64,000 bases of DNA from Acetobacteraceae bacterium. Lineage in GTDB: Bacteria; Pseudomonadota; Alphaproteobacteria; Acetobacterales; Acetobacteraceae. Each line of letters starts with the position of its first letter. Positions within the stretch are counted from its first letter, which is position 1. Where the stretch lies: assembly GCA_965246835.1 (NCBI GenBank), contig CBDFFQ010000001.1:2558451-2622450 (forward strand). The letters are read 5' to 3'. Below the pieces are notes generated by a model. The model did not search any database. It was not told the origin of the DNA and was given only the letters and a program-made list of their open reading frames with translations. The position numbers and the translations under genes are program-made. Below, one piece after another: positions 7,962-46,241 of this stretch.

Positions 7962-8630
7962 ATGCCTTCCAAATCCGGCATCCTTTTTTACGGCGACCCG
8001 CACGGACGTTGGCAGCCGCTGCTCGACGAATATGCCCGCCATCCTGCCAAAGCCGTGGTCCTCCTCGGCGATTGCGAGTTGTCGGCTCCTCTCGCAGAGA
8101 CGCTGAAACCCATCAGCACTGATGGGTGTCCCATTCATTGGATTTACGGGAATCATGACAACCACACTGAAAACCAATGGGACAACCTCACAAGCGCCCC
8201 GAGCGGTTTGCATGGCCGAGTGACCGATGTGGCGGGCCTGCGGCTGGCCGGGCTGGGCGGCAATTACGCCGCTAAAATCTGGTATCCTAAGGTCGGCAAC
8301 GAGGAACCCCGTCTCCGCACACGGCGGGAATTCCTGAAGAGCTTGCCGCGCTCTGGTCGTCCCGGGACGGAATTGCCCCTTGAGCGCCGTGCTTTGATTT
8401 TCTCGGAGGACCACGACGCGCTGAAGCGGCTGCGGGCTGATGTGCTCGTGTGCCATGAAGCACCCACCAGCCATCCGCATGGGTTTGGCGGGATTGATGA
8501 GCTGGCGAAGGCGATGCGGGTGAGGCTAGTCGTGCACGGCCATCATCACGTCGGTTATCGCGGTGCGTCCCAAGACGGAATTGAGGTCCGGGGGCTCGGC
8601 ATCGCGGAGTGCTGGCGGCACGAAGTGTAG
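7962..8630 (+). CDS. calcineurin-like metallophosphoesterase
   Basis: Motifs GDPHG, LLGDCE, GNHDNH, VCHEAP, VHGHHH. Confidence 0.8.
   Translation: MPSKSGILFYGDPHGRWQPLLDEYARHPAKAVVLLGDCELSAPLAETLKPISTDGCPIHWIYGNHDNHTENQWDNLTSAPSGLHGRVTDVAGLRLAGLGGNYAAKIWYPKVGNEEPRLRTRREFLKSLPRSGRPGTELPLERRALIFSEDHDALKRLRADVLVCHEAPTSHPHGFGGIDELAKAMRVRLVVHGHHHVGYRGASQDGIEVRGLGIAECWRHEV
8109..8126. repeat. motif B copy 1 (CCCATC-N6-GATGGG)
   Basis: CCCATCAGCACTGATGGG, inside the phosphoesterase CDS. Confidence 0.7.
8356..8371. repeat. motif A copy 1 (core GTCCCGGGAC)
   Basis: gtcGTCCCGGGACgga. In a CDS, read as R-P-G-T. Confidence 0.8.
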
Positions 8631-8896
8631 CTTCACGCAACGCTGTGTGGGAGGCGTGCCATTGTCCGCCGGGATGATAAGCTCTGCTTGCTCCCTGCTT
8701 TTCAAGCTGGCACGGTCCCGCCCGAATGAGCAGGTATCGAGTCGGTGGACCAAATCAAGAGCGGGAGATATGGCGTTGTTCCGGGACAGTTCTCCGGCCT
8801 TTTAGCGCGCTTGCCATCCGGCTGTGAGGGTCCAGCCTGTGTTCGCGGCATAGGGGCGGAATTGCCGCTGGTTAACCTTCGGCTGAAGGCATTCTA

Positions 8897-9952
8897 ATGG
8901 CGTTAGCGGAAGCGGTGCCAACACCAGATGCAGTAGAGCACCTGAAGGGAACACCTCAGCGGAAGGCATCCAGAATCGCCTATTCGACCGATTCCGGCTC
9001 CATGTATCACGGGTTTATAGAAGATGTCCTGAAGCGGCCCGACGTCAGGCAATCTCGCGGCAAGGTGGACCTGATATTCACGTCTCCGCCGTTCCCACTT
9101 GTCACCAAAAAGCGCTACGGCAACGAGACGGGCGAGGCATATCTGAACTGGCTTACGTCGCTGGCCGAGCCACTGGCAGAGATGCTGGCACCGAACGGCT
9201 CTATAGTGATGGAGGTTGGAAATGCGTGGGAGAAGGGTTCGCCCACGATGTCCACGTTGCCGCTGGAGTCGCTACTGGCCTTTAAGAAGGCAGGAAACCT
9301 GCATCTCTGCCAGCATGTGATTTGTCACAATCCTGCCCGTCTTCCGAGCCCGGCAGCTTGGGTAACCATCAAGCGCCTTCGCCTGAAAGACACCTACACA
9401 CATGTCTGGTGGATGTCGAAAAGCGAATATCCGAAAGCAGACACCCGCAAAGTGCTGACTCCCTACAGCAAAGAAATGCTGAAGCTGCTCGCTCGCCAGT
9501 CCTATAACTCCGGCCAGCGCCCCTCGGGGCATAAGATTTCAGAGCGGGGCTTCATGACCGACCAGGGAGGAGCCATTCCAGCGAACGTTCTCGACTTTCA
9601 GGACGGCGACGACCGCCTTCCTCCAGCGTTGATGAAGTTCGCCGGCACCGGGTGGGACACGAAATACAGGGATTACTGCAAGGAGATGGGAGTGGATGCC
9701 CACCCGGCTCGCATGCAGATGAGTCTGGCCGCGTTCTTCATAAGCTACCTGACTGACGCAGGGGACCTGGTGCTCGATCCATTCGCGGGTTCCAACACGA
9801 CCGGTGCCTCTGCCGAGCAGTTAGGCCGGAGATGGCTAGGGGTCGAAGCCGAGGAACAATATGTAATCGGGTCAAAAGGCCGCTTCAGCGGCTTCTTCGG
9901 TGCCGGGTCGAAAGGGCAGCCCTCCTCTTCGCAGGATATCGAACATGAATGA
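8897..9952 (+). CDS. DNA methyltransferase, beta-class (N4-cytosine or N6-adenine)
   Basis: Motif IV FTSPPF precedes motif I LDPFAGSNTTG, which is the permuted order typical of the beta class. The stop overlaps the next gene's start. Confidence 0.8.
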   Translation: MALAEAVPTPDAVEHLKGTPQRKASRIAYSTDSGSMYHGFIEDVLKRPDVRQSRGKVDLIFTSPPFPLVTKKRYGNETGEAYLNWLTSLAEPLAEMLAPNGSIVMEVGNAWEKGSPTMSTLPLESLLAFKKAGNLHLCQHVICHNPARLPSPAAWVTIKRLRLKDTYTHVWWMSKSEYPKADTRKVLTPYSKEMLKLLARQSYNSGQRPSGHKISERGFMTDQGGAIPANVLDFQDGDDRLPPALMKFAGTGWDTKYRDYCKEMGVDAHPARMQMSLAAFFISYLTDAGDLVLDPFAGSNTTGASAEQLGRRWLGVEAEEQYVIGSKGRFSGFFGAGSKGQPSSSQDIEHE

Positions 9953-11534
9953 CGTGATAGCCACGGATAGTTTCGAGACCGACTTCTCCGTCGGCCCACA
10001 GGCAATCGCCAACTACAGTCGCCTGAGCTACACGATGTGGCACGCGCTGGCGGAATTCATCGACAACTCCACCCAGTCCCGCCTAAACTACGGCTCCATC
10101 ATAGATGATGTCCTGAACCAGGAGGGTACGCCCCTGGTGGTGGATATCACCCACAATCGCGTCGCCAAAACGATCACAATCTCCGACAACTCGATTGGCA
10201 TGACCAAGGACGACTTGGTTGACGCATTGAAGATTGCAATGCCGACGAAAGACAGCCGCGGTAGGTCGAAGTACGGGATGGGCATGAAGACAGCTGCCTG
10301 CTGGATAGGAGCTGTCTGGGAAATAAGCACGGTCGAGTGGCTGAGCGGAACTCGCTACTCAGCCGTCATCGACGTCGATTCTGTGAGCAAAGGCGGCAGG
10401 ATAACTATTCTGAGTAGCCCGGTCGGAGAAAACGAACACGGCACTTCGATAACCATCTCAAAGCTTCATCGGAATGTTCAGAAACGAACAGAGGGGACAA
10501 TTCGCGACTATCTTGGCTCGATGTATCGCTTTGACCTTGCGCGTGGCGCGACAAAGCTTCTCTATAACGGTACCGAAATAAAGCCCATCGATGAGTATGA
10601 CGTGGACACGGACCCCGCTGGGAACTTAATGCGGATGGACCTCCCAGGTCTGACCATCAACGGTAAAGCCGTGACGGGATGGGTAGCCATCCTGAAGAAG
10701 GGCGGCAGGAAATTCGGTGGGTTTTCGCTGTTTCAGAATGAACGCCAGATTCAGGGCTTTCCGAACGCCTGGAAGCCAAAGGTCATATTCGGCGGGGAAG
10801 ACGACGAAGGGGCCAACAATCTTGTGGCTCAGAGACTGACCGGAGTGCTCAATCTGGACGGGTTCGAGGTGTCACACACCAAGGATGCCATACTCTTTCA
10901 GGGGGATGAGGAAGAGGAGCTGGAGACGTTCCTCAAAGGTTTCACGAAGGACTATCGCGACTACGCAAAGAATAGACGGGGCCCTAAGAAGACCACCTGG
11001 ACGCGGGAGAAAGTGCGCGACCTGATGGTCGACCTGAAAAAGGAGTTTAGCAGTCCGGAATTCAAAGATACCGTAACGAACTCGGTTCTTCCGCCTATCG
11101 AGGTTATTCTGGCCGGCAACCAGAAGCAGCTCGAAAGCATCGAGCCAGCCGACCATATTGGCACGTTCGACATTCCGCCGGACCTGAAGGTGGTTGTCTC
11201 CTTCCTGGAGAAGAGTGTCTACGAGCCCTACGTGACGCTCGTCGCGGGTGCGAACCCTGGCACGATCCATGTCATTATAAACGGATTGCACCCCTATTAC
11301 TCATCGCTGGAAACCGGCGAGGCGATCCACGAGTGCATGAAGCAGTTTGTTTATGATGCGATAGCCGAATACCGAGTACGCAAGCTGTCCAGCAAGATAA
11401 GCTGGGAAAGCGTGCGGCTATTGAAAGATGACCTTCTGAAGGCGAAACTCGTTCAGATTGAGAACCGGGCGGCAGCAGAGCAGGACGGGGACGAGGTCGA
11501 TACCGGCAAGGTTGATCCAGACACGGACGAGTAA
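9945..11534 (+). CDS. GHKL-superfamily (MORC/HSP90-like) ATPase
   Basis: N-box AEFIDNS, G1 ISDNSIGM, G2 YGMGMKTAACW. Start set at ATG 9945 (MNDVIATD), which overlaps the MTase stop. Confidence 0.75.
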   Translation: MNDVIATDSFETDFSVGPQAIANYSRLSYTMWHALAEFIDNSTQSRLNYGSIIDDVLNQEGTPLVVDITHNRVAKTITISDNSIGMTKDDLVDALKIAMPTKDSRGRSKYGMGMKTAACWIGAVWEISTVEWLSGTRYSAVIDVDSVSKGGRITILSSPVGENEHGTSITISKLHRNVQKRTEGTIRDYLGSMYRFDLARGATKLLYNGTEIKPIDEYDVDTDPAGNLMRMDLPGLTINGKAVTGWVAILKKGGRKFGGFSLFQNERQIQGFPNAWKPKVIFGGEDDEGANNLVAQRLTGVLNLDGFEVSHTKDAILFQGDEEEELETFLKGFTKDYRDYAKNRRGPKKTTWTREKVRDLMVDLKKEFSSPEFKDTVTNSVLPPIEVILAGNQKQLESIEPADHIGTFDIPPDLKVVVSFLEKSVYEPYVTLVAGANPGTIHVIINGLHPYYSSLETGEAIHECMKQFVYDAIAEYRVRKLSSKISWESVRLLKDDLLKAKLVQIENRAAAEQDGDEVDTGKVDPDTDE

Positions 11535-12688
11535 TGTCACCGCTGGCACTTCGAGCGTGGCAAGAGCAGGCGTTGCCTCGATGGCGTGCACAAGGTCATC
11601 GGGGAATTGTCGAGGTGGTCACCGGGGGCGGAAAGACTGTCTTTGCGCTTGCGTGCATTGCCGACCTTAAGGCGGAAACGGTGCTCATCGTCGTTCCGAC
11701 CGTCGCTCTCCTGGAGCAGTGGTGGGCGGAGGCAGCCTCGTTCTTCGGTCTGGATCTGGATGAGATAAACATCATCTCCGGCAACCGTTCGGTCGTGAGC
11801 GGCACCATCAACATCGCCGTTCTAAATACGGCGGCGAAGCTCGCAGGCAGACGCGGTATCAAGGACTGCTTCCTTATCGTAGACGAGTGCCACAAGGCGG
11901 CGACCCCGCAGTTCAGAGCCGTTCTCGAAATTCCGAAATTTGCGGCACTGGGCCTGTCGGCTACCCCGGAGCGCCAGTATGATGACGGTCTGGCGCAAAT
12001 TCTAATTCCGGCGCTCGGCCCGGTCATTTACCAATACAGCTACCGCGAAGCCATTCTGGACGGCGTGATCGTCCGCTTCGAGCTTAGGAACATCGTCTTC
12101 GAACTGGAGGCTGACCGAGCAGCGGAATACGAGAAGCTGTCCAAATCCATTGCCCGGTCGGTTGATCGATTCGGGATTGAGTCCGAGCAGGCAATTGCCC
12201 TCCTGCTCCGACGGACAAGGCTGGTAAACCTCAGCCTGGAACGCATTCGTATCACTATCAGGCTCATAAACCGGCACAAGGGTGCGCGCATCCTCGTTTT
12301 CCACGAGGACATCGAAGCGTGCGATCTGATCCTGCAATTCCTCAGGGAGGCGGAGTTCCGGGCGGGGGCCTACCACTCCAGACTTCCGGCCCGGCAACGT
12401 GTCGAGTCACTTGCGGCCTTCCGCCGGGGTGACCTCGACATCCTGATTACGTGTCGTGCGCTTGACGAGGGTTTCAATGTTCCTGAAGCGCAGGTGGGCA
12501 TCATCGCGGCCAGTACGGCAACGCGCCGTCAGCGCATTCAGCGACTGGGCCGCGTCCTCCGACCTGCGGCAGGTAAGAGCGAAGCGGTTGTGTATACCTT
12601 GGTTGCCACGGGACCCGAGGTAGGCAGGCTGAAGGAAGAGGAAGATGGATTGGCGGACCTGGCGACAGTCACCTGGGTCCATGCATGA
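11534..12688 (+). CDS. SF2 DEAD/DEAH-box helicase (type III restriction res-like)
   Basis: Walker A TGGGKT, DECHK, SATP, QRLGRVLR. TAATG overlap with the upstream gene. Confidence 0.8.
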   Translation: MSPLALRAWQEQALPRWRAQGHRGIVEVVTGGGKTVFALACIADLKAETVLIVVPTVALLEQWWAEAASFFGLDLDEINIISGNRSVVSGTINIAVLNTAAKLAGRRGIKDCFLIVDECHKAATPQFRAVLEIPKFAALGLSATPERQYDDGLAQILIPALGPVIYQYSYREAILDGVIVRFELRNIVFELEADRAAEYEKLSKSIARSVDRFGIESEQAIALLLRRTRLVNLSLERIRITIRLINRHKGARILVFHEDIEACDLILQFLREAEFRAGAYHSRLPARQRVESLAAFRRGDLDILITCRALDEGFNVPEAQVGIIAASTATRRQRIQRLGRVLRPAAGKSEAVVYTLVATGPEVGRLKEEEDGLADLATVTWVHA

Positions 12689-13458
12689 AAAAGATGTTTG
12701 TCGGCAACTGTTCGCCGGAGACGCTCTTCGAAATGACGGACCCCGACAGCGTGTCGGAGACAGCCTTTGAGGCGTGGGTCGTCCGGGCACTGGCCTGCGC
12801 GTTCCCGAGCTACCGCTGCGTTATCTTCACGGGCTCGTTTCAATACGAAGGCCGTACATTCCGGCCGGACCTGGCCTTGCTGTCGCGTGACCTGTCTCAC
12901 TGGTTCATCATTGAGGTCGAGCTGACGACGCACTCGCTTTACCAGCACGTTCTGCCCCAGGTGCGCGCATTCAGATACGGCGAGCCACAAGCTGATTGCG
13001 CGCCCGGTCTGGCTACGGCGCTGGGTCTGCCGCTTGGGCAGGCGGAGACGCTGGTCCGGCGCATCCCGTATGGCATTGCAGTTGTAGCTAATCGAGATAA
13101 TCGAGACTGGTGGGTAGCGCTCAACGCGCACGAGATACAGATGCTCACCGTTTCAGCGTATACGTGCCCAAAGGGGATTGAGGCTTTGGAGGTTGATGGC
13201 TCCCTGGAAGTCGTGAAGGACAGTCTGGGGTTCGGGATTTATTCCGCAGCGGTTCGGTCACTTCGGTTCAGCCCGCTGCTCAGGGTTGTCGGACCGCGCG
13301 TTTTGATACGGGACTATTTCGGAGGCCTGTCCTGGTGGCTCGTTCATCGTGACGTAGATGCAACCTGGCTGACCAAGGAGCTCGGGACACCTGACATCGA
13401 CGATAGCAAACACGTGCAGCTTGTGGCGACCCGCGACGGCGGATTATCCCTAAGATGA
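12685..13458 (+). CDS. hypothetical protein, possible PD-(D/E)xK-fold nuclease
   Basis: ATGA overlap with the helicase. FRPDLALLSRDLSHWFIIEVELTTH resembles a restriction-endonuclease-like core, but the lysine is not obvious. Confidence 0.5.
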   Translation: MKKMFVGNCSPETLFEMTDPDSVSETAFEAWVVRALACAFPSYRCVIFTGSFQYEGRTFRPDLALLSRDLSHWFIIEVELTTHSLYQHVLPQVRAFRYGEPQADCAPGLATALGLPLGQAETLVRRIPYGIAVVANRDNRDWWVALNAHEIQMLTVSAYTCPKGIEALEVDGSLEVVKDSLGFGIYSAAVRSLRFSPLLRVVGPRVLIRDYFGGLSWWLVHRDVDATWLTKELGTPDIDDSKHVQLVATRDGGLSLR

Positions 13459-13981
13459 CCGGGGCGGCAGGCTGGGTAACGCGTCTGAAACCATCGTCAA
13501 ATTCCGGCCGGGGGCACGCTCAGTTTAGAACACCACTGAGGCTGCCAATGGGTCAGGGCGGTCTAGAGGAGGCACCGCTCCGACTCAATGACGAACAGCA
13601 CGACTATTTGGGACCGCTGCTAAGCCGCCTTCAATCCTTGGTCACGGGAGACGTACTGGGCATCCGGGAACTCGGCACGGAGTGCGGCGACGACCGCTGC
13701 ATCGGCCCCCCACAGGACGAGAGCTGACCCTTTGCCGGATCCAGAATTCCGCCCTTGCCCAGAGCCGTCAATAAATTTCACCCGACGCTTCAGCAGCAGC
13801 ACGTCAGCGACACCGTAAACACTTGCTGACCACCACCGGGTATCAAAGCTTCCGGGGACAAGCCCCACGACCAGCGAGGCCTCACCAGTATCGACCGCTC
13901 GGGCGCAACGTTCGACGCAGGCGACGATTTCGCGTCCGTACGGGGGATTCGCGTACACAACACCCTCCCACCGCGCCACTA

Positions 13982-15033
13982 GAGCGGTTTCCATTCATTC
14001 TGGCTCATACCCGGCGGCAGTGAAGTAGCTGGCGCAGTCCTGCGCGGTAAAGCAGGGAAGCGCGTTGCGGATCACGTCCCATAGGTCGTCGATCGTGCGT
14101 GCTGCTGCCTTGCGCAGGTAGGCTTTGAGCTTGGAGAAGGCATTCTCGATTGGGTTGAAGTCGGGGGAGTAGGGCGGCAGGTAGCGTAGCGTGGCCCCAA
14201 CTGCCTCGATCGCCCGCCGCACGTCTGCGCCTTTATGCGCGGGCAGATTATCCATGATGACGGTGTCGCCTCGGTGGAGCGTGGGCACCAGCACCTGCTC
14301 GATGTAGGCCTGGAAGGCGATGCGGTTCATCGGGCCGTCGAGGACCATGGGCGCGGTCATGCCGCTGACCCGAAGCGCGCCGGTGAAGGTGGTCGTCTTC
14401 CAGTGACCATGCGGCACGGCGGCGCGGCAGCGCTCGCCTTTGCGGGCGCGGCCGCGGATCCGGGCCATCTTGGTCGATGCGCCGGTCTCGTCGATGAAGA
14501 CCAGGCGCTTGGGGTCGAGGTCAGGCTGGCCTGCGAACCAGGCTCGCCGTCGGGCTGCGACGTCGGGCCGCTCCTGCTCGGCTGCGTGCGCTGTTTTTTT
14601 TGAAGGTGAGGCCGTGGCGGTCGAGGCAGCGCCAGATGGTGCTGGGGCCGAACGAGGCGCCGTGGTGGTCGCGCAGCAGGTCCGACAGCTCAGCCAAGCT
14701 GATGTCCTTCTGGGCCGCGACCGCTGTCAGGATCACGCCGCTGAAGGCCTCGATCCGACGCGAGCGGGTGTCGCCGCCCTGCGGCTTGGGCGCGACGGAC
14801 CCGGTCGTATTGACTGCCTGCACCCACCGGACGGCGCTCGCAGCTGAAACACCAAACCGCTCCGCCGCAGCGCGCCGAGACATGCCGTCTGCAACCGCCG
14901 CAACAAGCCGGGACCGTAGATCGACGGAAAGAATCTTCCCCATGCACGCTGGCCTCCTAACCAGCCTGCATGGTGAATCACATCACGCCCGCGTCGGGGA
15001 ATCCCTTTGATTCAGACCGGACGAGAACCGCTC
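13982..15033 (-). mobile_element. IS630-family insertion sequence, copy 1 (1052 bp)
   Basis: Terminal inverted repeats GAGCGGTT(C/T)C. Flanked by TA/TA within CTAG. All six-frame ORFs are identical to copies 2 and 3. Confidence 0.9.
13995..14943 (-). CDS. IS630-family DDE transposase (two frames joined at a T8/A8 run)
   Basis: orfA is an HTH part (14521..14943). orfB is the DDE part ([28 protein letters not shown]). The A8 run lies at 14594..14601. Confidence 0.85.
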
Positions 15034-15553
15034 TAGTGCATCCTCCTCGCGGGTGATGTAGCGGATTGCGGGCACAGGGCTTCGCTCCATCCCCGGCGAG
15101 AACGCATCTACATCGAACTGCTCGCGGCCCAGGGCCTTGAGAATACGGGCGAGCAATGGCTTGGGCGTGTACCATTCGACATGGGTACTGGGTCCGCGCC
15201 CGAAAAAGGGTTTCACCTCATCTTCGCCGGTCACTGCAAGCCGTTCGAAGGCACGATGTGTGTCCTGGGACGCACCGACATCATTGGCAGCCGTCGGCCG
15301 CTGCTTTCCGCGCTTCGAGACATGCCGCCGCAGCGGCTGCTCTCCCCGTCGCGCAAGGCAACCATCCAACTGACGAAGAACCCACTCATGGAGTGGCGCG
15401 CCGTCATTGGCTGCATGCCGGTGAAGGCGGTCCAGGTCCTCGCGATAGAGATAAAGCGAAGTGGCCGAGGTCTCGCGCTTGATGCCGGTCCGGGTATCAT
15501 CCTTTTCGTCGCGGCGGTTTCGCGTCGGCGGGGTTGTCACCGCCGCTTTCGTC

Positions 15554-15569
15554 TCCGTCCCGGGACGGA
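15554..15569. repeat. motif A copy 2 (perfect 16-bp palindrome)
   Basis: TCCGTCCCGGGACGGA, inside the MTase CDS. Confidence 0.8.
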
Positions 15570-15822: not shown

Positions 15823-15840
15823 CCCATCGGTGTAGATGGG
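15823..15840. repeat. motif B copy 6
   Basis: CCCATCGGTGTAGATGGG, inside the MTase CDS. Confidence 0.65.
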
Positions 15841-37415: not shown

Positions 37416-37456
37416 CGGCTTCCCCGGCACGAATTTCCTACAATGATGAGGTTTGC

Positions 37457-37936: not shown

Positions 37937-37957
37937 GCGGGCTGTTGGGTCCGTCCA

Positions 37958-38650
37958 TCAGGAGGGAGTTGCCACCTCCGGGAGCGGCTCACGTCGTGGT
38001 CTCCCCGGTCCACGACGTGGTGCAAGAGCCGCAGAGCTTTCCTCAACATCGACCTGTGACGGTAAACGCCGGACCAACTCGCCCAGCGTACCTTGCAGGT
38101 GCTCCACCGTTCGTCGGGTTGCCTGCTCTTCTCCCCGCGCCGTTGCCTCTGCCTGCCTCGCTGCAGCAACAGCCGCCGCAGCAGCCTGCGTGTCATTCGC
38201 ACGGTCGCCGCGCTCCTGTTCAAGGTCTCTGGAAAGCGCTGCATACCGCTCGTCAGCTATCTCCAGCAGTCGGGTCGCCTCGGCGCTGTCATCCTCCAGC
38301 TCAGCAACCCGTGCGCGCGCCGCGCCAATTTCCGCCTGGACACGCTGGCCGGAAAGTTCGGACGCTGCCCTCCACGCAGCGGAGAACGCCGCCCTCAACT
38401 CGGATGTCAGACGTTCCTCGGCCGTTGCGAGGCTGTCGGCCACAGCAGGCGGCAATGCCACCGTAAGCTCAGTGGCCGGCGCTGCATGAGCGCTGACGTT
38501 CAGACTGTCCCAGATTGCGGCCAAGCGGTCGGCTCGTCCCGAGCCGATAATCGTCCGAAGCGTCCAGCCGGTTATGGTTTTCCCTTTTGTGGTAAGCTCC
38601 TCCGCAGCCGCACGCACTTGCTCTTCTGTAATAACTGAAATTGCTGGCAT
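37958..38650 (-). CDS. kfrA: KfrA-like DNA-binding coiled-coil protein
   Basis: N-terminus ITEEQVRAAAEELTTKGKTITGWTLRTIIGSGRADRLAAIW (KfrA_N-like), followed by a long Ala/Glu/Arg coiled coil. Confidence 0.65.
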   Translation of the reverse strand: MPAISVITEEQVRAAAEELTTKGKTITGWTLRTIIGSGRADRLAAIWDSLNVSAHAAPATELTVALPPAVADSLATAEERLTSELRAAFSAAWRAASELSGQRVQAEIGAARARVAELEDDSAEATRLLEIADERYAALSRDLEQERGDRANDTQAAAAAVAAARQAEATARGEEQATRRTVEHLQGTLGELVRRLPSQVDVEESSAALAPRRGPGRPRREPLPEVATPS

Positions 38651-38662
38651 CCTGGTCCTCCT

Positions 38663-38692
38663 CTAACGTTAGCGAACGTTCGTTAACGTTAG
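38663..38692. promoter_or_regulatory. near-perfect 30-bp palindrome with three AACGTT hexamers at 10-bp spacing (candidate operator)
   Basis: CTAACGTTAGCGAACGTTCGTTAACGTTAG, lying between the predicted -10 and the RBS of the kfrA-like gene. Confidence 0.6.
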
Positions 38693-38721
38693 TATATCGT
38701 CATGGGCTGGTGCCTCGTCAA
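38693..38721 (-). promoter_or_regulatory. sigma70-like promoter of the kfrA-like gene
   Basis: On the minus strand: TTGACG (38716..38721), 17 nt, GATATA (38693..38698). Confidence 0.45.
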
Positions 38722-38769
38722 CAGTATTAAGAATTATTATTCATAGCCCTAATTTACTCTTATTCATTC

Positions 38770-38785
38770 TCATCGGTGCTGATGG
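38770..38785. repeat. motif B copy 2
   Basis: TCATCGGTGCTGATGG, intergenic, 18 bp from motif A copy 7. Confidence 0.65.
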
Positions 38786-38800
38786 TTTACTGTCCGCGCT

Positions 38801-38816
38801 ATGGTCCCGGGACGGA
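38801..38816. repeat. motif A copy 7
   Basis: atgGTCCCGGGACgga, intergenic. Confidence 0.8.
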
Positions 38817-38828
38817 CACACATTCCTC

Positions 38829-39575
38829 CTACCCGTCGGGCAGATGTTCCAGCAGCAGAACCGCCCCCGGCAACGCCTTCCGCTTCTGCCGCAAAAGCTT
38901 CAGCCCGCCCGCCGCAAGGACAGCCAGAGCCTCCAGAAGCTCCCGTAATCTGTCCACGCTGCCCGCTTCAAAAGGCAGAACACAGCCGCCTGACGCGTCA
39001 GCAATCGCATCAAATGCCGACCGATGCTCACGGGCAGAACTGTCTGCCGTGTCGTGGAGGACGATGACCCGGCAGCCTTTCAAACGCAGAGCCTTGGCTG
39101 CTGCAACCGCCTCGGGCAGGGCCTCTTCGAATACGTCACCGATGTACACGGCCACCTTCAGCCGCTCGACCAACCGCGCTCTGTCCAGAACTTCGACCAA
39201 GCGCGTTACACCTCCCTTGCAGCGCACGGATGCCGCCCTGTCCCTGAGGTGAGCGGCATCAGCAGAGAAGTCCGTCCAGGTGTGAACCTCTGAGCCGCCA
39301 TGAACGGCGAGACCGACATCCAGCCCGTCAGGCACGGCAGAGAACAGGCTGTCCGTGACCTGCTTGGCCGTCACCCAAGCCGGTTCCCGACTGGCCGTGG
39401 CATCCACCGCCAGCAACAGGCGCGGTCGGCCTGCGTCCAGCGCTGCTCGTCGGAGGTCGGCTGACGTTGGTTGAACGAGAGCGGGCGGCTTAGCTGCACG
39501 TATCCGGTCCAGGGCAGCCGAAGACTTGCCGATAACGGGGAGGCCGCGGCGAGGAGGTACGACGAGATTGCCCAT
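38829..39575 (-). CDS. von Willebrand factor A (vWA) domain protein
   Basis: LLLAVDATASREPAW (MIDAS-like D-x-T-x-S) ... VYIGDVFEE ... VIVLHD. The ATG overlaps the stop of the J-domain gene (TGATG). Confidence 0.65.
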   Translation of the reverse strand: MGNLVVPPRRGLPVIGKSSAALDRIRAAKPPALVQPTSADLRRAALDAGRPRLLLAVDATASREPAWVTAKQVTDSLFSAVPDGLDVGLAVHGGSEVHTWTDFSADAAHLRDRAASVRCKGGVTRLVEVLDRARLVERLKVAVYIGDVFEEALPEAVAAAKALRLKGCRVIVLHDTADSSAREHRSAFDAIADASGGCVLPFEAGSVDRLRELLEALAVLAAGGLKLLRQKRKALPGAVLLLEHLPDG

Positions 39576-40771
39576 CACGCGGCCTCCCTGACGTTCCTGT
39601 ATGCGTCAGCAACGGCGCGGCTGACCCATGGCGGCAATCCTGATACGTCGGGATGCACTTTCTTCATGATGGTCCGATATGCGGCTGTCACTTCGTCCCG
39701 GGACGCTCCGCGTGTCAGGCCGAGCACCTCCCACGGATCGGATGCTGTCGTCGCGTCAGCAGGTTCCTCGGCTGCAACGTCGCGCCATGCGGGATGAGCC
39801 GCATCTAGGTAGGCTTCGAGGAGGTCAGCGTCCATCCCGTGCTTCTCCGTTCGAAGCAGACCGAGCAGTTCGACAAGGCGCGGCACTGTTATGTCAGTGA
39901 AGGTCGTTTCAGCGGGCCAGCCGCCGAACCCACGACGAAGGTGCCCGTGAACACGACCATCGGCATCAACGTCCACGACGATGATATCGCCGTCGTCCCC
40001 GGCCTTTTTACGTCGGCCAGAGGTCCGCTTCAGTTGCTCGGTGGGGTCTACGCCCAGCCAAACAAGTGCTTCGTCAAGAACCAGCTTTTCCACTTCCTGG
40101 GAAACCGATGAAGCGGGTCGCAACATCTGAACCTCCTCTGTCTCCAGGAGACCATCGGCTGCCTCGGCCACAACACTGTTCAATTCAATGCAGCGCTGAA
40201 GGTCACGCTCCCATGCTTCCGCTGCCAGCGCGCCGATTCGCTTTGCCCCCGCGTCAGCAGAGCCGTGCATTGCAGCGGCAAGTCTGAATGCCCCATCGGA
40301 CACCCAAACCGTGCTGCTCTTCTTCACGGCTTGCCATCCTGTCGGTCCGTTTCCGCCCGTGGGCGTGCCGCCCGTGACAAGCTCCCGCTTGAATGGATGC
40401 TCCGGTTCTCTGTCGTCCGCTGCTACCGACGGCTCCCGAGGCGGTGGCGGCTCGTCCGTGCGCCACAGGTGTGCCGTATCGAGAAGCGTCCACAGAGCTA
40501 CGTACGCGGGCTGAACGCCACCGTTGGCCGTTTTTGCCGTCGCCCTGCGGTGCTCGGGAAGGCCATCCGTAGGAACGACGCGCCTGACCAGCGTGTGGGA
40601 GATTGCAGGACCGATAAGCGCGTTCTCCCCTCTGACCGGCAACTCGAAAATTTCACCCGTCTCGGGATGAACAGCCTCACCTTCGAGCAACAAATCCTGC
40701 CGGATGAAGGACACCTGCCGCCGAATAGGCTGACCGAGTCCGGTTGAGAATGAAAGTATGTGACGGCTCAT
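39575..40771 (-). CDS. protein with C-terminal J-domain (DnaJ-like)
   Basis: C-terminus DPWEVLGLTRGASRDEVTAAYRTIMKKVHPD carries the HPD motif. The N-terminal ~330 aa are unassigned. Confidence 0.7.
   Translation of the reverse strand: MSRHILSFSTGLGQPIRRQVSFIRQDLLLEGEAVHPETGEIFELPVRGENALIGPAISHTLVRRVVPTDGLPEHRRATAKTANGGVQPAYVALWTLLDTAHLWRTDEPPPPREPSVAADDREPEHPFKRELVTGGTPTGGNGPTGWQAVKKSSTVWVSDGAFRLAAAMHGSADAGAKRIGALAAEAWERDLQRCIELNSVVAEAADGLLETEEVQMLRPASSVSQEVEKLVLDEALVWLGVDPTEQLKRTSGRRKKAGDDGDIIVVDVDADGRVHGHLRRGFGGWPAETTFTDITVPRLVELLGLLRTEKHGMDADLLEAYLDAAHPAWRDVAAEEPADATTASDPWEVLGLTRGASRDEVTAAYRTIMKKVHPDVSGLPPWVSRAVADAYRNVREAA
39692..39707. repeat. motif A copy 8
   Basis: ttcGTCCCGGGACgct. 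In the J-domain CDS, read as S-R-D on the minus strand. Confidence 0.8.
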
Positions 40772-40799
40772 GATGGTTCTCCCGGATTGCGGAAGAGAA

Positions 40800-40815
40800 C
40801 CATCGGTGGCGATGG
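40800..40815. repeat. motif B copy 5
   Basis: CCATCGGTGGCGATGG, in the divergent promoter region 40772..40934. Confidence 0.6.
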
Positions 40816-40934
40816 ATTAACTGCTTCCAGTCCAGAATGTCATGGATGAACGGCGTGTGTCAGCTGTTCTGTTCACCTAGCGCAATATATGTTGCTAGCT
40901 GCATTTGTTACCGGGCGCTGATACGCTGTTGTCG

Positions 40935-41624
40935 ATGACAAACGCGAGCAAAGATACTGTTCTGCTTTCAACGACCGAGGCTGCGGAGCTTGCCGGTGTG
41001 AGTCAGCAGGCACTCAATCTGTGGATCCACCGCGGTCTTCCCGGTGCCCGTCGGCTGGGTGGGTCGTGGGGCATTGAGCGGGAGCAGTTCGAGGCGTTCC
41101 TGCGCCATCGCGCCGCCCACTGCGCAAAGAACTGGTATCGCAGCTTCGGGAAAGCCGCGGTCGAGGCCCCGGGGTCAGACCCCTCCGTCTCTCAGGACTT
41201 CATCACCATTGCCGATGCAGTCCGGCACAGCGGGTTTACGAAGAGTGCCGTTGAGGGGTGGGTCAAGAGGGGCGTGGTGTCTGCCGTGCATGTCGGAACC
41301 AGGCGCTGGCTGCTCAGCCGGGCATCACTGGATGCGTGGCTGCTGCGGCGGACCGAAGAGCCGAACCTGCCCGGGCACATCACGGTCGGGAAGGCAGCGG
41401 AGCAGGCGGGCACCGACAGGGACACCATACGGAAGTGGCTGAAGCGAGGGCAGGTAGCGGGGACAACCGTTGACGGGAACAAAATGGTGGAGAGTGCGTC
41501 GCTGGAAGCGTGGCTGGTCAGGCGGGCACATCATTACAGGCGACGTCCCGAGTGGATAGGCGGCAAAGGCAGGAAGCGGGTCAGCGCCTCAGTCCAGCAC
41601 CGAACTGAAGTCCGGCCGCAGTAG
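40935..41624 (+). CDS. DNA-binding protein with three tandem excisionase/MerR-type HTH (HTH_17-like) modules
   Basis: Three repeats: LLSTTEAAELAGVSQQALNLWIHRG, FITIADAVRHSGFTKSAVEGWVKRG and HITVGKAAEQAGTDRDTIRKWLKRG. Each is followed by ..SLDAWL / SLEAWL / QFEAFL. Confidence 0.65.
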   Translation: MTNASKDTVLLSTTEAAELAGVSQQALNLWIHRGLPGARRLGGSWGIEREQFEAFLRHRAAHCAKNWYRSFGKAAVEAPGSDPSVSQDFITIADAVRHSGFTKSAVEGWVKRGVVSAVHVGTRRWLLSRASLDAWLLRRTEEPNLPGHITVGKAAEQAGTDRDTIRKWLKRGQVAGTTVDGNKMVESASLEAWLVRRAHHYRRRPEWIGGKGRKRVSASVQHRTEVRPQ

Positions 41625-42347
41625 ATAGCGCTGAGGTGCAAACCGCAGATGCCTGACTACAGGGAGCTGCGGGTCGCGGGAGATGGGCAGCGTGACCGAG
41701 AAGTTCCGCACCACGACGTGGCAAACATCACCCCGGACTTCGAAACGGAACGGGTCGCTCCAGAACGGCATGTTTTCAGCGGACGGTGCGGGTGCGTCAC
41801 CCCCGAGGACCATCTGGGACATCGCAGGTATATCCCGCAGGAATCTGTCGGGTGCGAAGAACTGCCTCCGCGCCAGAATGCCGGCAGGCGTGAAAGCGAC
41901 CTTGTAGCCAAACCTTGCGACCATCGCGAGATAGCCCACCGAAAACGCAGCAACGCTCACACGCTCCGTTAGCTTACCTTTGCCTCTGAAAACCGAACGG
42001 TTCATCAGCGCTCGCAATGACGCGTCGTAGAAGCTGCCCTTCCACCCGTTGCAGCCGTTGCCCTGCGTTCGCCGCCCTTTCACGGTCAGCGGCGCGCTGC
42101 ACAGCAGGATGTGGCCGCTGCGCATGCTGGCCGAAAGGCTTGCCTTCACGAACTGAGGGTCATCGGCCAGGGCTTGCCGCGGAACGATGTGCTCAAGGCT
42201 GAATGCACTGCGTTGAAGGAGGCGGCCACAAACACAACAGCGCAGGCGGTCGGCCTCTACGGGCCCGCTGACCGCTTCCAGGTCTGCCCGCATCTCATGC
42301 CAGAGCTTGTCCGTTCGGGCCGCGGTAAGCAGGTTCATCTCGCCCAT
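41589..42347 (-). CDS. HNH-type endonuclease domain protein
   Basis: CCVCGRLLQRSAFSLEHIVPRQAL ... NGCNGWKG. The start overlaps the relaxase stop. Confidence 0.6.
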   Translation of the reverse strand: MGEMNLLTAARTDKLWHEMRADLEAVSGPVEADRLRCCVCGRLLQRSAFSLEHIVPRQALADDPQFVKASLSASMRSGHILLCSAPLTVKGRRTQGNGCNGWKGSFYDASLRALMNRSVFRGKGKLTERVSVAAFSVGYLAMVARFGYKVAFTPAGILARRQFFAPDRFLRDIPAMSQMVLGGDAPAPSAENMPFWSDPFRFEVRGDVCHVVVRNFSVTLPISRDPQLPVVRHLRFAPQRYLLRPDFSSVLD

Positions 42348-44260
42348 GGCGGCACCGGAACATATGCGGGAGCCTCATCGAGCACTGCCCAATCAAAACC
42401 GAGGCCGGCTGCTTCCTCCCGCAACTCAGCCTGCTCCTCATCGCTGAGGGGACAATCCAACACCTTAATACCTTGCCTGAGCAGTTCCCGCGCCGCAGCA
42501 ACCCTGAACTCCGGGTCGCCATCCACCTCGACTGCTTGCCAGCCACGCCGGGCGACGCAGGCGACCAACTCGGCAACGGCGACGTCGTCCGCCGGACCTT
42601 TGACGGTTATCTTGTCGCCTGTATCCAGAATTTGCGTGCCGCTCCACAGGGTCAGCATCACGTATTTGCCGTCCTCCTCAACGTCCACACGCCTGAGCGC
42701 CAGCACGGCCTCCACGGGCAGGTAATCAACCAGTTTGTATGTACGTTTCACGACCAGCGCGAGAAAGCGCAGCCGGCGTTCCCTGACGGTCTTGGGGTCC
42801 TCGGCACAGCGCAGCGACACCTTGGGGCTACCTTCAGGCGCAGGACGGATGTCAAAGCGGTCGATGCTGCGGAGTGCCGCACCAAGCCACTCATCGCGCT
42901 GATGCCGTCGAAAATGCTGTTCGAGTGATGCGGCCTCAAGAAGCTTCTTCAGGCGCGCTGCTCGCCTGTTCTCTGCTTCCTCGGCTTCGGCACCGCCCGC
43001 TCCACTTCTATCTTCTCGGCCAGCGTTGCCTCGTCCGCCTGCCGTGCTGCTCTGGGCGAGGCGATACGCAGCAGTGCGTTCAGCAGCTGCTTCACTTCCC
43101 GCAGTTCCTGCACTTGCTCCGTCAGTAACGCCTCTATCCTGTCGAGTGACGTTGCTCCGTCCGTCGCCTCGGCTCTGTCCAGCAGCGACATCAATCTGCT
43201 CACCCCGCTTCCCGCGTCGAGCGCTGCCGCGACCGGCGGGGTCATCCCGCGCCTGTCCAACTCTCTGAGCTGTGCCGGCTCGCCAATACCTGCGAGAAAC
43301 TCGTCGTACTCGCCCGTTCCCCAAATCCTGTTCTGCGATTTGCCCTGTATCATCGTGTTCCTCCCCTTGGAGCGGTTTCCAGCCGCCCATCCATGTTTCG
43401 GCTTCTCCGAGCTTCACCTTCAGCAGCCTGTGCAGCGCGCCGGCATACGACCAGTTGCCCGCGCGGCTTTGAACCTCGATTATCCAGCGGCTGTCTTTCC
43501 GTCCCGGGACGGTCCGCAGGCCGTATTCGGCAAGCGATGCTGCGAATGCCTCAGGTCCGTCGCTGAGCATGCGGCATTCCCGCACCTGGTCAGCAATCTC
43601 CGGCAACGTCCGTTCTGCGAGTTTTTGCGTTTCCTTGTCGTCTTCGTCCTTGCAACGGCTCGCCCGACGCTTCACCGCCTGCACTTGGTGAGTTGTGTAG
43701 GCGGCCTGCGGTTCTGCCTTCACGTTTAGGCCGTCGCCAATCAACAAGTCTGCATCGTCCTCCCGCCCTTCAGCACGCAGGCGCTCGATGATGATGCGGT
43801 TGAACGCGCCCTGAACAATGCTGTGGCCCCAGCGAGCTTCGAGGACGCGGCTAACCTTCTCCTGCCGCGCGTAACTCCAGCGGCTACTGAGCACGCGACC
43901 GTTTGTTGGGTTCACCTCCGGCACCAGCACGTGCAGGTGGAATTCTGAAGCCGCATCGTGCAGCCGCCGTTTCTGATGGCCCACGACTACGGCATCATCT
44001 TCGCTAAAGCCGAATTCCAGCGCGAGGTCCGTCACCGCTTCCGCCATTTGCGCACGGGTGGGTGTCTCGCGCGGAGCTATCTTGAAATGCCGAATCCCGT
44101 ATGTCCGCCGCCAATGGCGCGCGTCATCAACGGCATCATACAGGGCCTGTTCGCTCCCTTGCAGAACGACAATCCGCTCGTTCGCCGTGCCATGGAATAC
44201 GTGGTCAGCCGTGGCTTTCGCACCCTTCGAAGCCAGCAGGCGGGCGCTCTGGACAATCAC
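42335..44260 (-). CDS. relaxase/mobilization nuclease with C-terminal LPD7-like domain
   Basis: The N-terminal 150 aa carry a histidine triad-like FHLHVLVPEVNP. Ala/Arg/Gly-rich linker. C-terminal ITVKGPADDVAVAELVACVARRGWQAVEVDGDPEF. Confidence 0.7.
   Translation of the reverse strand: MIVQSARLLASKGAKATADHVFHGTANERIVVLQGSEQALYDAVDDARHWRRTYGIRHFKIAPRETPTRAQMAEAVTDLALEFGFSEDDAVVVGHQKRRLHDAASEFHLHVLVPEVNPTNGRVLSSRWSYARQEKVSRVLEARWGHSIVQGAFNRIIIERLRAEGREDDADLLIGDGLNVKAEPQAAYTTHQVQAVKRRASRCKDEDDKETQKLAERTLPEIADQVRECRMLSDGPEAFAASLAEYGLRTVPGRKDSRWIIEVQSRAGNWSYAGALHRLLKVKLGEAETWMGGWKPLQGEEHDDTGQIAEQDLGNGRVRRVSRRYWRAGTAQRVGQARDDPAGRGSARRGKRGEQIDVAAGQSRGDGRSNVTRQDRGVTDGASAGTAGSEAAAERTAAYRLAQSSTAGGRGNAGREDRSGAGGAEAEEAENRRAARLKKLLEAASLEQHFRRHQRDEWLGAALRSIDRFDIRPAPEGSPKVSLRCAEDPKTVRERRLRFLALVVKRTYKLVDYLPVEAVLALRRVDVEEDGKYVMLTLWSGTQILDTGDKITVKGPADDVAVAELVACVARRGWQAVEVDGDPEFRVAAARELLRQGIKVLDCPLSDEEQAELREEAAGLGFDWAVLDEAPAYVPVPPWAR
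43498..43513. repeat. motif A copy 9
   Basis: tccGTCCCGGGACggt. In the relaxase CDS, read as V-P-G-R on the minus strand. Confidence 0.8.
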
Positions 44261-44742
44261 CGCAGCCCCCTTGGCCGTAACAGCGCGGTAAGCTCACCCC
44301 GCAGCCCGTCCAGAGCCGTGTGTGCATCCCGCACTGCCTTAGACAGCGCCTCGGCATCCACGGCTTGCCCGGCCTTGGCAGCCGCATTTGCGTGCGCCAT
44401 GGCCTGGTTGAGATTGCTGCCCACGCCGCTCCCGATATCCCGCCGAAGCCGCGCAATCTCGGCAAGCACCTCATCCGACAGCCGTGGCGTACTCTCCCCC
44501 TCAGCAGCCGAAAGCAGAAGCCCTCGCGACCATGATGAGAGGTCAGGATATCCCGCCCGCCTGGATGCTGCGGTCAGCCGGATCTTCTCACTCGGTAGAA
44601 CCCTGAAGCGAACAAACCCGCTTCGGAAAGCCCTGACTGACGGCGGACGGCCACCACGATCACGCTTCGTCGCGGGCTTCCCATCCGGTAACGCGAAGGG
44701 GTCGGACAGCCAATCTGCCATGTCAGGGAGCCGGGCTTTCAT
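44257..44742 (-). CDS. mobC: MobC-family relaxosome accessory protein
   Basis: Start set at MKARLPDMADW. GSNLNQAMAHANAAAK is the MobC signature. The stop overlaps the relaxase start. Confidence 0.75.
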   Translation of the reverse strand: MKARLPDMADWLSDPFALPDGKPATKRDRGGRPPSVRAFRSGFVRFRVLPSEKIRLTAASRRAGYPDLSSWSRGLLLSAAEGESTPRLSDEVLAEIARLRRDIGSGVGSNLNQAMAHANAAAKAGQAVDAEALSKAVRDAHTALDGLRGELTALLRPRGLR

Positions 44743-45154
44743 GACCGCCGGTTCCGTGGTCACCTGAGTTACTGAGCACCTCCACAGGCGGCGTGACACC
44801 ATAGGTGCGGGCGTGCGTGAGGTAGCCGTAAAGCGCACACTCCACAGCGTAGCCCCAGTTAACCGCTGTCTGGAGGTTTTCAGCGTAATGATTGAAAACA
44901 CGGACCGCGGGCGACATTGTTTCCTCGTCAACGTGGGCCTGGCATAGCGTGACTGCCCCAGCGTCAGCTGGCTCCTCAGTGCCTGCAACCCGCCCCATGT
45001 CGGCGAAGACGGGCCGAAGAAGTTCAAGCAAAGGCTCGGGCGTATTCTCGTCCATCCAGCGGGGTAGGTTTTCGGCGATGTACCTGACCGTCTCCGGCGG
45101 AACCGCTGGCACGCTGCCGTCAACCGTTTCATTGCTGCTTATTCCTGTCGTCAT
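44723..45154 (-). CDS. hypothetical protein
   Basis: Start set at MTTGISSNETV (ATG 45154). Coding-like. Overlaps the mobC start. Confidence 0.5.
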   Translation of the reverse strand: MTTGISSNETVDGSVPAVPPETVRYIAENLPRWMDENTPEPLLELLRPVFADMGRVAGTEEPADAGAVTLCQAHVDEETMSPAVRVFNHYAENLQTAVNWGYAVECALYGYLTHARTYGVTPPVEVLSNSGDHGTGGHESPAP

Positions 45155-45187
45155 AGCCCACTCTCCTTCATGCGGAGCGGCATCAGT

Positions 45188-45203
45188 GCCGTCCCGGGAC
45201 GGA
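45188..45203. repeat. motif A copy 10
   Basis: gccGTCCCGGGACgga, 37 nt upstream of the 45154 start. Confidence 0.8.
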
Positions 45204-45400
45204 TGAGAAGACCGATACCTGCTTGACCGCTCAGGGCCGCTCAGGCGGGGGTTCCACAGGGGCGCAGCCCTTTGGCGAGTTGTTCTGTGGCACACGGAAC
45301 ATGCCTCGCAATCCCTGATAGTCTTCACCATCCGTGTTACTGAGGATAGTCGGCCCGTACGCAAATTACCGGTGAAATCGTATTATGGAAGTAATTGGGT

Positions 45401-45416
45401 TCCGTCCCGGGACAGA
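45401..45416. repeat. motif A copy 11
   Basis: tccGTCCCGGGACaga, intergenic. Confidence 0.8.
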
Positions 45417-45523
45417 AGAGGCTGACTGTGTTTAACTGAGGCTTGCGGTCTTCCATGCCGTACGGTGTGTCACCCACGCGGTATTTTACGATGGCCGAGG
45501 GTGCGGTGTCGGGACGTTGAAAG

Positions 45524-45539
45524 CCATCGGTGCTGATGG
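45524..45539. repeat. motif B copy 3
   Basis: CCATCGGTGCTGATGG, intergenic. Confidence 0.7.
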
Positions 45540-45545
45540 GGATAG

Positions 45546-45845
45546 TCAACCATCGCCGTGGAGAAGGAGTGCCCATCCCGGAACGAGGGAGCCGACTAGA
45601 GGGCCGGGGCCGTGGGCATCTTCGCAGAGGTAGATGGAGACCTGCCGTCCTCGGCAGCCGTTGCACCGCAATCGTATCATCGTATCGGCCACGGTCTGGC
45701 CGTTCAGCTCAGGGTTGGTGTCCAGCATCAGGCGCACGGGATGAGGAGTGGAATGGCCGCAGCCGCAGCGCACGTATAACCAGCGAGCACGGATGCTGCC
45801 CAGCGTGCAGGCAAGGGCGACAGAGCGGTCGAAGGGTGGTGACAT
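45546..45845 (-). CDS. small Cys-rich (zinc-ribbon-like) protein
   Basis: MSPPFDRSV..YVRCGCGHS..LRCNGCRGRQV. CxC...CxxC pattern. Confidence 0.45.
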   Translation of the reverse strand: MSPPFDRSVALACTLGSIRARWLYVRCGCGHSTPHPVRLMLDTNPELNGQTVADTMIRLRCNGCRGRQVSIYLCEDAHGPGPLVGSLVPGWALLLHGDG

Positions 45846-45929
45846 AGACAAGAACGTATCAGGAACTGCTAAGATTGCCACCTTCGAGGAAGCTGCACAG
45901 GCTCAAGCCTCCGGGGCCTGCTTGCTGAA

Positions 45930-45946
45930 CCCATCGGCACTGATGG
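45930..45946. repeat. motif B copy 4
   Basis: CCCATCGGCACTGATGG, in the divergent region between 45845 and 45982. Confidence 0.7.
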
Positions 45947-46233: not shown

Positions 46234-46241
46234 AACACCAC

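Follow-up and report, generated by a model that had tools for sequence, protein, structure and literature searches.

Copies of a 16-bp palindrome probably form the operator set of an element-encoded regulator in an IncQ-like integrative mobilizable island

Circuits in which a global repressor acts on dispersed palindromic operators are familiar from plasmids of the IncP, IncU and IncQ groups as well as from integrative and conjugative elements (ICEs), and the type of circuit considered here is therefore not new in principle. In IncP-1 plasmids such as RK2, KorA and KorB (operators OA and OB), and likewise KorC of the IncP and IncU plasmids, act at short palindromic operators that are located at many backbone promoters, including those of replication and transfer genes and of kfrA, which is also controlled by KorA and KorB. 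The IncP-1 Kor circuits are autoregulated, they contain a second dispersed palindrome that often lies near the first one, and some of their sites are found away from promoters. In the IncQ-1 plasmid RSF1010, the replication genes are acted on by protein F (68 amino acids [aa] in pSRC15), a small autoregulated repressor of the E-F-repA-repC operon. Finally, ImmR of ICEBs1 and SetR of SXT are XRE/Cro-type repressors, encoded by the elements themselves, which silence transfer and excision genes via palindromic operators. Here we analysed a 64,000-nt stretch of the genome of an Acetobacteraceae bacterium (contig CBDFFQ010000001.1, positions 2,558,451 to 2,622,450; this whole stretch is called the window), which contains a 46-kb integrated island (6009..52178). 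The subject of the analysis is a palindrome, motif B, all six window copies of which are located on the island.

Motif B has the form CCATC-N6-GATGG, a 16-bp palindrome whose exact consensus is CCATCGGTGCTGATGG; five of its six copies have exact arms and one carries a single mismatch. A search of the window with the exact pattern CCATCNNNNNNGATGG returns five matches (at 8110, 15824, 40800, 45524 and 45931), to be compared with a mean of 0.05 and a maximum of 1 in 100 dinucleotide-preserving shuffles, and the sole further match that has at most one mismatch to the 16-mer consensus is TCATCGGTGCTGATGG at 38770. The host genome (3.87 Mb in two contigs) contains 20 arm-exact sites, 5 of which fall within the island, while the other 15 have unrelated spacers. 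The island makes up 1.2% of the genome, yet a genome-wide scan places in it every match to the full 16-mer with at most one mismatch, as well as 6 of the 15 matches with at most two. Motif B is thus non-random and, in this genome, restricted to the island. Its copies in the window are the following (motif A is a second palindrome, described below; open reading frames are abbreviated as ORFs and helix-turn-helix as HTH):

8110..8125: site B1, CCATCAGCACTGATGG, found by pattern match and ORF scan inside a metallophosphoesterase ORF (7962-8630), in the codons for PISTDG; a motif A copy is at 8358.
15824..15839: site B2, CCATCGGTGTAGATGG, with the most divergent spacer, inside a C5-cytosine methyltransferase ORF (14983-16704, minus strand); a motif A copy is at 15556.
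38770..38785: site B3, the copy with one arm mismatch, in the AT-rich 178-bp gap between the stop codon of the vWA gene and the start of kfrA, which is 119 nt downstream of the site; a motif A-like site is at 38803.
40800..40815: site B4, CCATCGGTGGCGATGG, in the divergent region between the J-domain gene and the triple-HTH gene and upstream of both, at a distance of 28 nt from the J-domain ATG (40771, minus strand) and of 89 nt from the triple-HTH start (40905, plus strand).
45524..45539: site B5, the exact consensus, on the side of the putative origin of transfer (oriT) and the mob operon, just past the Cys-rich ORF.
45931..45946: site B6, CCATCGGCACTGATGG, in a divergent region, 35 nt upstream of the ATG of the small gene and also upstream of the divergent Cys-rich ORF.

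The genes and the non-coding block that bear on these sites are listed next; numbers of the type L001 denote contigs that carry related elements, which are presented below.

36489..36875, plus strand: XRE-family HTH protein (Cro/C1-type), conserved in the backbone.
37958..38650, minus strand: kfrA (KfrA_N domain plus coiled coil), downstream of site B3.
38829..40771, minus strand: operon of a J-domain gene (39575-40771) and a vWA-like gene (38829-39578), downstream of site B4.
40905..41624, plus strand: triple-HTH protein, with three excisionase-type HTH_17 domains.
42335..45153, minus strand: mob operon, consisting of a relaxase gene and two accessory genes.
45240..45325 (approximate): non-coding block that precedes the mob operon and contains an inverted repeat, conserved at the DNA level in comparisons of all reading frames with L001, L003, L004 and L005; probably the oriT.
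45546..45845, minus strand: Cys-rich ORF of 99-111 aa (CGCGH...CNGCRGR), between sites B5 and B6.
45982..46233, plus strand: small gene for an 83-aa protein of an unnamed family, the candidate repressor, with syntenic homologues in L001, L003 and L004.
46242..46790, minus strand: HIRAN-domain protein, convergent with the small gene; no B site precedes the gene in the window.

Sites B3 to B6 are intergenic. Site B5 sits in the 18-nt spacer of a TTGAAA/GATAGT hexamer pair on the plus strand and is located 12 bp upstream of a CCGACA-18-TAAAAT promoter-like match on the minus strand that faces the oriT and the mob operon. A TATAAT-like hexamer, such as TATAAT, TATAAA or TATTAA, begins no more than 1-2 nt after most motif B sites; all these promoter assignments are weak consensus matches.

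Relatives of the element are rare: the relaxase has only 13 homologues among 5.8 billion clustered proteins. The contigs encoding them were fetched, and two more were obtained via the HIRAN protein. All these relatives are metagenome contigs that were fetched in part, and the counts given for them cover the fetched parts. Four of them, independent of one another, carry exact copies of motif B:

L001: relaxase identity 75%, 2 exact B sites.
L003: relaxase identity 57%, 3 exact B sites.
L004: relaxase identity 54%, 4 exact B sites.
L050: relaxase identity 44-52%, 3 exact B sites.

The number expected from shuffles is 0.02 for L003 and likewise for L004. An unbiased census that took in every palindrome of the form 5+gap+5 ranks motif B with the top families of the window, L003 and L004, and motif A first in each. 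Together, the shuffles of the window, L003 and L004 and the genome-wide scans exclude a chance origin of motif B. Over the 18 sites of the five elements the extended consensus is ATAnCCATCGGTGCTGATGGnTAT, which can be written in full as ATAnCCATCGG-TG-CTGATGGnTAT, and the 24-bp form of the site is ATATCCATCGGTGCTGATGGATAT. The spacer is GGTGCT or a close variant of it, and the flanks are A/T-rich and symmetric. The arm bases CATC and GATGG are invariant in all 18 sites; the outermost C is replaced by T once only, at 38770.

Not only the sequence but also the position of the sites is conserved. Sixteen of the 18 sites are intergenic, and in L003 and L004 the sites are confined to the intergenic DNA of the backbone. 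Sites located between the small gene and the oriT/mob region are present in the window (45524), L001 (5850), L003 (8563) and L004 (8231). A site precedes the HIRAN gene in L003 (7801), L004 (6741) and L050 (5952), and the replication region in L003 (3566) and L004 (3094), and in L050 a site is found 107 nt upstream of a kfrA-like gene (6890), as at 38770 in the window. The set of target genes is plastic: the J-domain/vWA operon, which has a B site in the window, has none in L004, where it comes directly after the relaxase gene, and in the window no B site precedes the rep operon. When the window is aligned with L001, the arms of the B sites are invariant while the neighbouring non-coding DNA is only ~50% identical.

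Site B6 is informative about the manner in which the palindrome is read, since its spacer in the window (GGCACT) and that in L001 (AGTGCC) are exact reverse complements of each other. The region surrounding this pair of sites (45931-45946 in the window, 5445-5460 in L001) is ~95% identical, and the spacers differ at four of the six positions. The flip could be the result of four neutral transitions within an R-G-Y-R-C-Y pattern, or of a template-switch inversion across the arms of the palindrome. That a site is kept with its spacer reverse-complemented implies that it is read without regard to the strand, and a maintained site that is indifferent to the strand fits recognition of duplex DNA by a symmetric protein and speaks against a hairpin in RNA.

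A further relative, L005, retains the XRE, HIRAN and mob genes and lacks the small gene. It contains only decayed copies of motif B, at the homologous places 3011, 7246 and 7896; the copy at 3011, CCATCAGCACCAATGG, has one arm mismatch and that at 7246 has two mismatches. To judge by the sequence, L005 looks like a case, a single one, of operator decay following loss of the regulator.

Behind the replication-side B site of L003 (region 3566-3660) and L004 (3094-3185), and behind the decayed one of L005 (3011-3100), there is first, after ~40 nt, a strong and conserved hairpin that resembles a terminator, and then, ~150 nt past that hairpin, a TATAAT-like box. The window has the hairpin and the box (51290-51420) and no B site there. 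This arrangement may serve to produce a short regulated RNA or transcript, or may be an attenuator.

Beyond these elements, motif B was not encountered in a related setting. The contigs L008 and L009 contain no CCATC-N6-GATGG site. A genome scan that used the relaxase alignment contributed a single further contig, L011 from Roseococcus, in which motif B is absent (a scan with the single relaxase found nothing). The plasmid databases yielded no DNA match to the element, near or distant, and no match to the small protein; they contain only remote relatives of the relaxase, on plasmids of Acetobacteraceae and Marivivens, and the one examined is without motif B. A metagenome scan for ATCCATCRGYRCYGATGGAT returned 26 contigs with a single site each and no homologue of the backbone or the small protein, which is about the number expected by chance. 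Two unrelated soil-metagenome contigs, L014 (5653-5672) and L015 (94-113), carry aatCCATCGGTGC(T/C)GATGGatt; they have no backbone homologues, and the copy in L014 is located 12 nt upstream of a gene whose translation resembles, by eye, a subtilisin-type (S8) peptidase. These two copies are probably a coincidence. Neither the 16-mer nor this regulon turned up in the searchable literature.

Motif A is a 12-bp palindrome, CGTCCCGGGACG, of which the island has 13 copies with at most one mismatch. The copies in the window are at:

8358, 15556, 18402, 21755, 21982, 29657, 37101, 38803, 39694, 43500, 45190, 45403 and 50465.

Nine of the ten exact copies in the genome fall in the same stretch as motif B. 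Motif A also occurs in L001-L007 and in L011, which is a wider set of related elements than that carrying motif B, and it is absent from L008 and L009. One copy has a conserved place inside the relaxase gene (codons V-P-G-R). Four of the six B sites have a motif A copy within 270 bp, which has a probability of 0.004 under random placement in the island, and this closeness recalls, by analogy, the pairing of OA and OB in IncP-1 plasmids.

A preliminary description of this stretch, made from its sequence alone, had listed six copies of motif B, five of them arm-exact, with ~0.07 expected per 64 kb. These counts, the sequences and the chance estimate (0.05 in our shuffles) are correct, and so are the coordinates, apart from a shift by one where a flanking C had been counted in. 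We also agree with its assignment of four sites to regulatory DNA (upstream of kfrA, in the J-domain/triple-HTH divergent region, on the mob side and in the divergent region 45845/45982) and with the motif A neighbours that it named, which are those at 8358, 15556, 38803 and 45403. It proposed that the sites are the operators of a dimeric repressor which the island encodes and by which maintenance, transfer and replication are coordinated, an idea that was to fall if homologous islands did not conserve the sites; the pattern search instead finds the same arms two to four times in each of L001, L003, L004 and L050. The operator set is thus supported by conservation in four relatives and by backbone placement, but the two proteins that had been proposed to bind it are not.

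A symmetric repeat that occurs far above chance level, is specific for the element, is placed between backbone genes, and is conserved in both sequence and position in relatives is what an operator set should look like, and we consider it very probable that motif B is an operator for a transcription factor encoded by the element. That this factor is an autoregulated repressor, most likely the small protein, which couples the backbone operons, is a reading that we favour with moderate confidence. We infer that the effect is one of repression, which promoters exactly are controlled, and which protein binds the sites and in what oligomeric state. According to this model, a repressor with twofold symmetry would occupy sites that overlap or abut core promoter elements, and would regulate its own synthesis via the site in front of its gene. 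On the island it would hold down kfrA, the J-domain/vWA operon, the divergent excisionase-like gene and the oriT/mob side, and in the relatives the replication region and the HIRAN gene would be added to the regulon. Maintenance, excision and transfer, and replication would in this way be coupled to the concentration of a single autoregulated repressor. Simple occlusion of promoters by such a repressor does not account for all the sites. Two of those in the window, at 8110 and 15824, are inside ORFs of the cargo, and the replication-side sites of L003 and L004 are ~200 bp upstream of the likely rep promoter, with the terminator-like hairpin in between. The two intragenic pairs of B and A sites (8110/8358 and 15824/15556) were also considered as copies of one inserted cassette, and this was rejected because they share no similarity beyond the motifs.

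The small protein is the product of the sole ORF that is conserved between the HIRAN gene and the oriT in all four close elements. Its homologue in L001 has 83 aa and that in L003 57 aa, L004 has two paralogues of 65 and 98 aa, and distant homologues are encoded by L008 and L009. A B site is found upstream of every small gene or operon, at a distance of 35 nt in the window and L001, 21 nt in L003, and 32 and 49 nt in L004. In L050, a positional analogue of 103 aa with the same helix-GL(T/P)-helix pattern begins 21 nt after a B site. An exhaustive profile search among 1.8 billion representatives puts the family at about eight members, and a profile search of 301 genomes of the same bacterial family found only the copy of the window besides spurious weak matches. 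The AlphaFold2 model (predicted local distance difference test score, pLDDT, 75) has a short helix spanning residues 4-15 and a long one spanning 19-58, which are joined by a G-L-T turn. The family alignments show no variation at G16 and N29, and little or none at R25, R30 and T36. On the long helix, R25, N29 and T36 (at i, i+4 and i+11) share one face and R30 is next to N29; in the model this face would suit a helix that reads a DNA groove.

Several observations weigh against the small protein as the binder. It is neutral to acidic overall, by residue count, and is predicted to be a mere two-helix hairpin with a pLDDT of only 75. Searches of Pfam, NCBIfam, PHROG and the PDB sequences gave no match to any known DNA-binding family, and the best Foldseek hit of the model (E = 2.9, the helical body of HU) is not significant. 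The match to the L050 analogue is not significant either (hhalign E = 0.06). The homologues in L008 and L009 keep N29 and T36, and that of L009 also R30, yet these contigs are without motif B. Moreover, the interval between the HIRAN gene and the oriT is short and the B sites cluster in it, so that the adjacency of the small gene and a B site is in part to be expected anyway. Taking these points together with its synteny, the site before each copy of its gene and its absence from L005, we put the chance that the small protein itself binds motif B slightly below even. A more tentative proposal, and one that we would regard as doubtful at present, is that the helix-GL(T/P)-long-helix family constitutes a new type of sequence-specific DNA-binding repressor, which would read the 16-24 bp palindrome via R25, N29, R30 and T36 and would act as a master switch paired with a binder of motif A, in the manner of KorA and KorB.

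The preliminary description had named two other binders, the XRE protein and the triple-HTH protein. No homologue of the latter is encoded in any of the fetched windows of relatives that carry motif B, and it cannot therefore be the conserved binder; on this distribution, its gene would rather be a regulated target. The XRE protein is a bona fide Cro/C1-type HTH protein that belongs to the backbone of most relatives; it was detected in the window, L001, L003 and L004 but not in the L050 contig, and the 5+6+5 spacing of the half-sites fits reading by an HTH dimer, as such dimers typically read half-sites about one helical turn apart. The XRE protein does not track motif B, however. In every element the nearest B site is more than ~1.9 kb away from its gene, and its recognition helix QRRYSxYxN (Q38, R39, R40, Y41, S42, Y44, N46) is invariant in L008 and L009, which have no B site in the XRE and mob-upstream regions, and likewise in L005, where the sites have decayed and whose XRE protein is the closest to that of the window (68%). 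Binding of the sites by this protein is accordingly improbable. Somewhat less so, though still unlikely, is that the operators are bound by yet another protein (the HIRAN protein, KfrA, a protein encoded outside the fetched parts or a host factor) and that the small gene is merely regulated, its product being, for example, an anti-repressor or a modulator of the relaxosome or replisome. The small protein is not basic and has no recognizable DNA-binding fold, which would agree with such a role. The HIRAN protein co-occurs with motif B and its gene is preceded by a site in three of the relatives, but HIRAN domains are known to bind DNA ends rather than specific sequences, and the protein is intact in L005 despite the decay of the sites there. 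KfrA is a known autoregulating DNA binder, and both the window and L050 have a B site in front of its gene. As a common binder it was rejected, since L011 encodes it without having a site and the fetched parts of L003 and L004 yielded no copy of it. Nor is a host factor likely, given that the host chromosome has no comparable sites and that the metagenome contigs which carry the five elements differ in G+C content. The Cys-rich ORF product, common to the window and L001 only, was discarded as a candidate as well.

The sites could also be something other than operators. If the palindrome acted as RNA, either by terminating transcription as a hairpin or by controlling translation as an operator in 5' leaders, it could form a stem of 6 bp that is closed by a loop of 4 nt (about -7 kcal/mol); two copies are flagged as terminator-like, and several are positioned 21-35 nt before a start codon. 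The fold energy is ordinary, however, at three of the four sites tested (z of -0.5 to -1.4), the stems being weak in general (z mostly above -1.5), and only 2 of the 18 copies are accompanied by a T-run, which the other 16 lack. The orientation is not conserved either: the asymmetry of positions 6 (G) and 11 (T) would allow a G-U pair on just one of the two strands, and this is not consistently the sense strand, as the asymmetry points one way at a site of the window and the other way at the corresponding site of L001, and is antisense in front of the HIRAN gene in L003 and L004. The A/T-rich symmetric flanks and the positions in divergent promoter regions fit recognition of duplex DNA, and we give hardly any credence to an action as RNA. 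Almost equally improbable is a non-transcriptional DNA site, such as a centromere-like site or one that nucleates silencing, a recombination site, or a restriction-modification target of the island methyltransferases. Two copies are inside ORFs, as parS sites or OB sites of the KorB type can be, motif A is a second dispersed palindrome near B sites, the island encodes several methyltransferases, and CCATC is a recognition word of type IIS enzymes. Against this, no ParA or ParB homologue was found among the island ORFs scanned, and a restriction-modification target would not hold a fixed 6-bp spacer or conserved intergenic positions across elements that have different cargo. The spacer and the positions are at odds with a recombination site or a centromere too, and in L003 and L004 the sites are restricted to intergenic backbone DNA.

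When the favoured circuit, that of an autoregulated repressor acting at motif B, is compared with the systems described at the outset, it would resemble the IncP-1 Kor circuits in all the traits mentioned there. It differs from them in its operator sequence, which is unrelated to OA and OB, and a Pfam scan detected no homologue of KorA, KorB/ParB or KorC among the island proteins that it covered. Furthermore, the element is an integrated, IncQ-like mobilizable island and not a conjugative plasmid, and the candidate binder is a two-helix protein of 57-103 aa that belongs to no known family. Protein F of RSF1010 is likewise a very small protein of an IncQ-type replicon, and a B site precedes the replication region in L003 and L004. 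Unlike the gene of protein F, however, the small gene does not head the rep operon but is located beside the HIRAN gene and the oriT, and the putative regulon extends to mob, kfrA and excision-type genes, whereas the rep operon of the window has no B site. Protein F was rejected as a homologue of the small protein, because hhalign of the family alignment against protein F of pSRC15 gave a probability of 0.2% (E = 0.38). As to ImmR and SetR, the likeness would by analogy consist in an element-encoded repressor that silences transfer and excision genes; unlike in those systems, the XRE protein here does not follow the operators, and no sign of a partner protease or anti-repressor was seen beside the sites.

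If this reading is correct, motif B defines the regulatory code of a rare and previously undescribed family of IncQ-like integrative mobilizable islands with defence cargo, in which one 16-bp operator would link kfrA, an excision-type gene, the oriT/mob region and, in the relatives, replication. The small protein would be a specific candidate for a new DNA-binding module, and the motif can be used as a sensitive marker to find and delimit these elements.

The island itself is recognized from the tRNA gene, the direct repeat, the GC content and the integrase. It is inserted in the 3' end of the tRNA-Gln(ttg) gene (5951-6025) and is bounded by a 17-bp direct repeat, TCCTTCCGCCCCAACCA, at 6009-6025 and 52162-52178; its GC content is ~0.60, as compared with ~0.70 in the flanks. 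By its gene content, it is an integrative mobilizable element with an IncQ-like core and defence cargo. Its remaining features are:

6303-7838: tyrosine integrase.
42335-44260: MobA/VirD2-type relaxase with an LPD7 domain, in the mob operon.
44257-44700: NikA-like mob accessory protein.
44723-45153: further mob accessory protein.
48113..51288, minus strand: IncQ-type replicon, comprising iterons, RepC and a PrimPol-AAA_25 helicase fusion.
48113-48178: three 22-bp iterons of the replicon.
48330-49322: RepC (PF06504 at 1e-24), with 28-31% identity to RepC of IncQ plasmids.
49258-51288: PrimPol-AAA_25 helicase fusion.

The iterons, the RepC initiator, the AAA_25 helicase and the Prim-Pol domain that characterize an IncQ-type replicon are thus all present. 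The right flank of the island is a gene for an RF-1-domain (ArfB-like) protein, a homologue of which is also found within the L002 contig. The HIRAN gene is a conserved backbone gene of this family of elements, often in two copies, and is always located beside the small gene and near the replicon; a role of its product in replication or in processing of the transferred strand is possible. The Cys-rich ORF shares 84% identity with its counterpart in L001 and has none in the other relatives; its product may bind zinc. The left half of the island consists of defence-type cargo, which includes methyltransferases, a GHKL ATPase, a helicase, a TIR protein and a DUF3800 protein. Three identical copies of an insertion sequence, each of ~1.06 kb, are present in this cargo (13975-15037, 18835-19893 and 25465-26526), and one of them adjoins the C5-methyltransferase gene that contains site B2.

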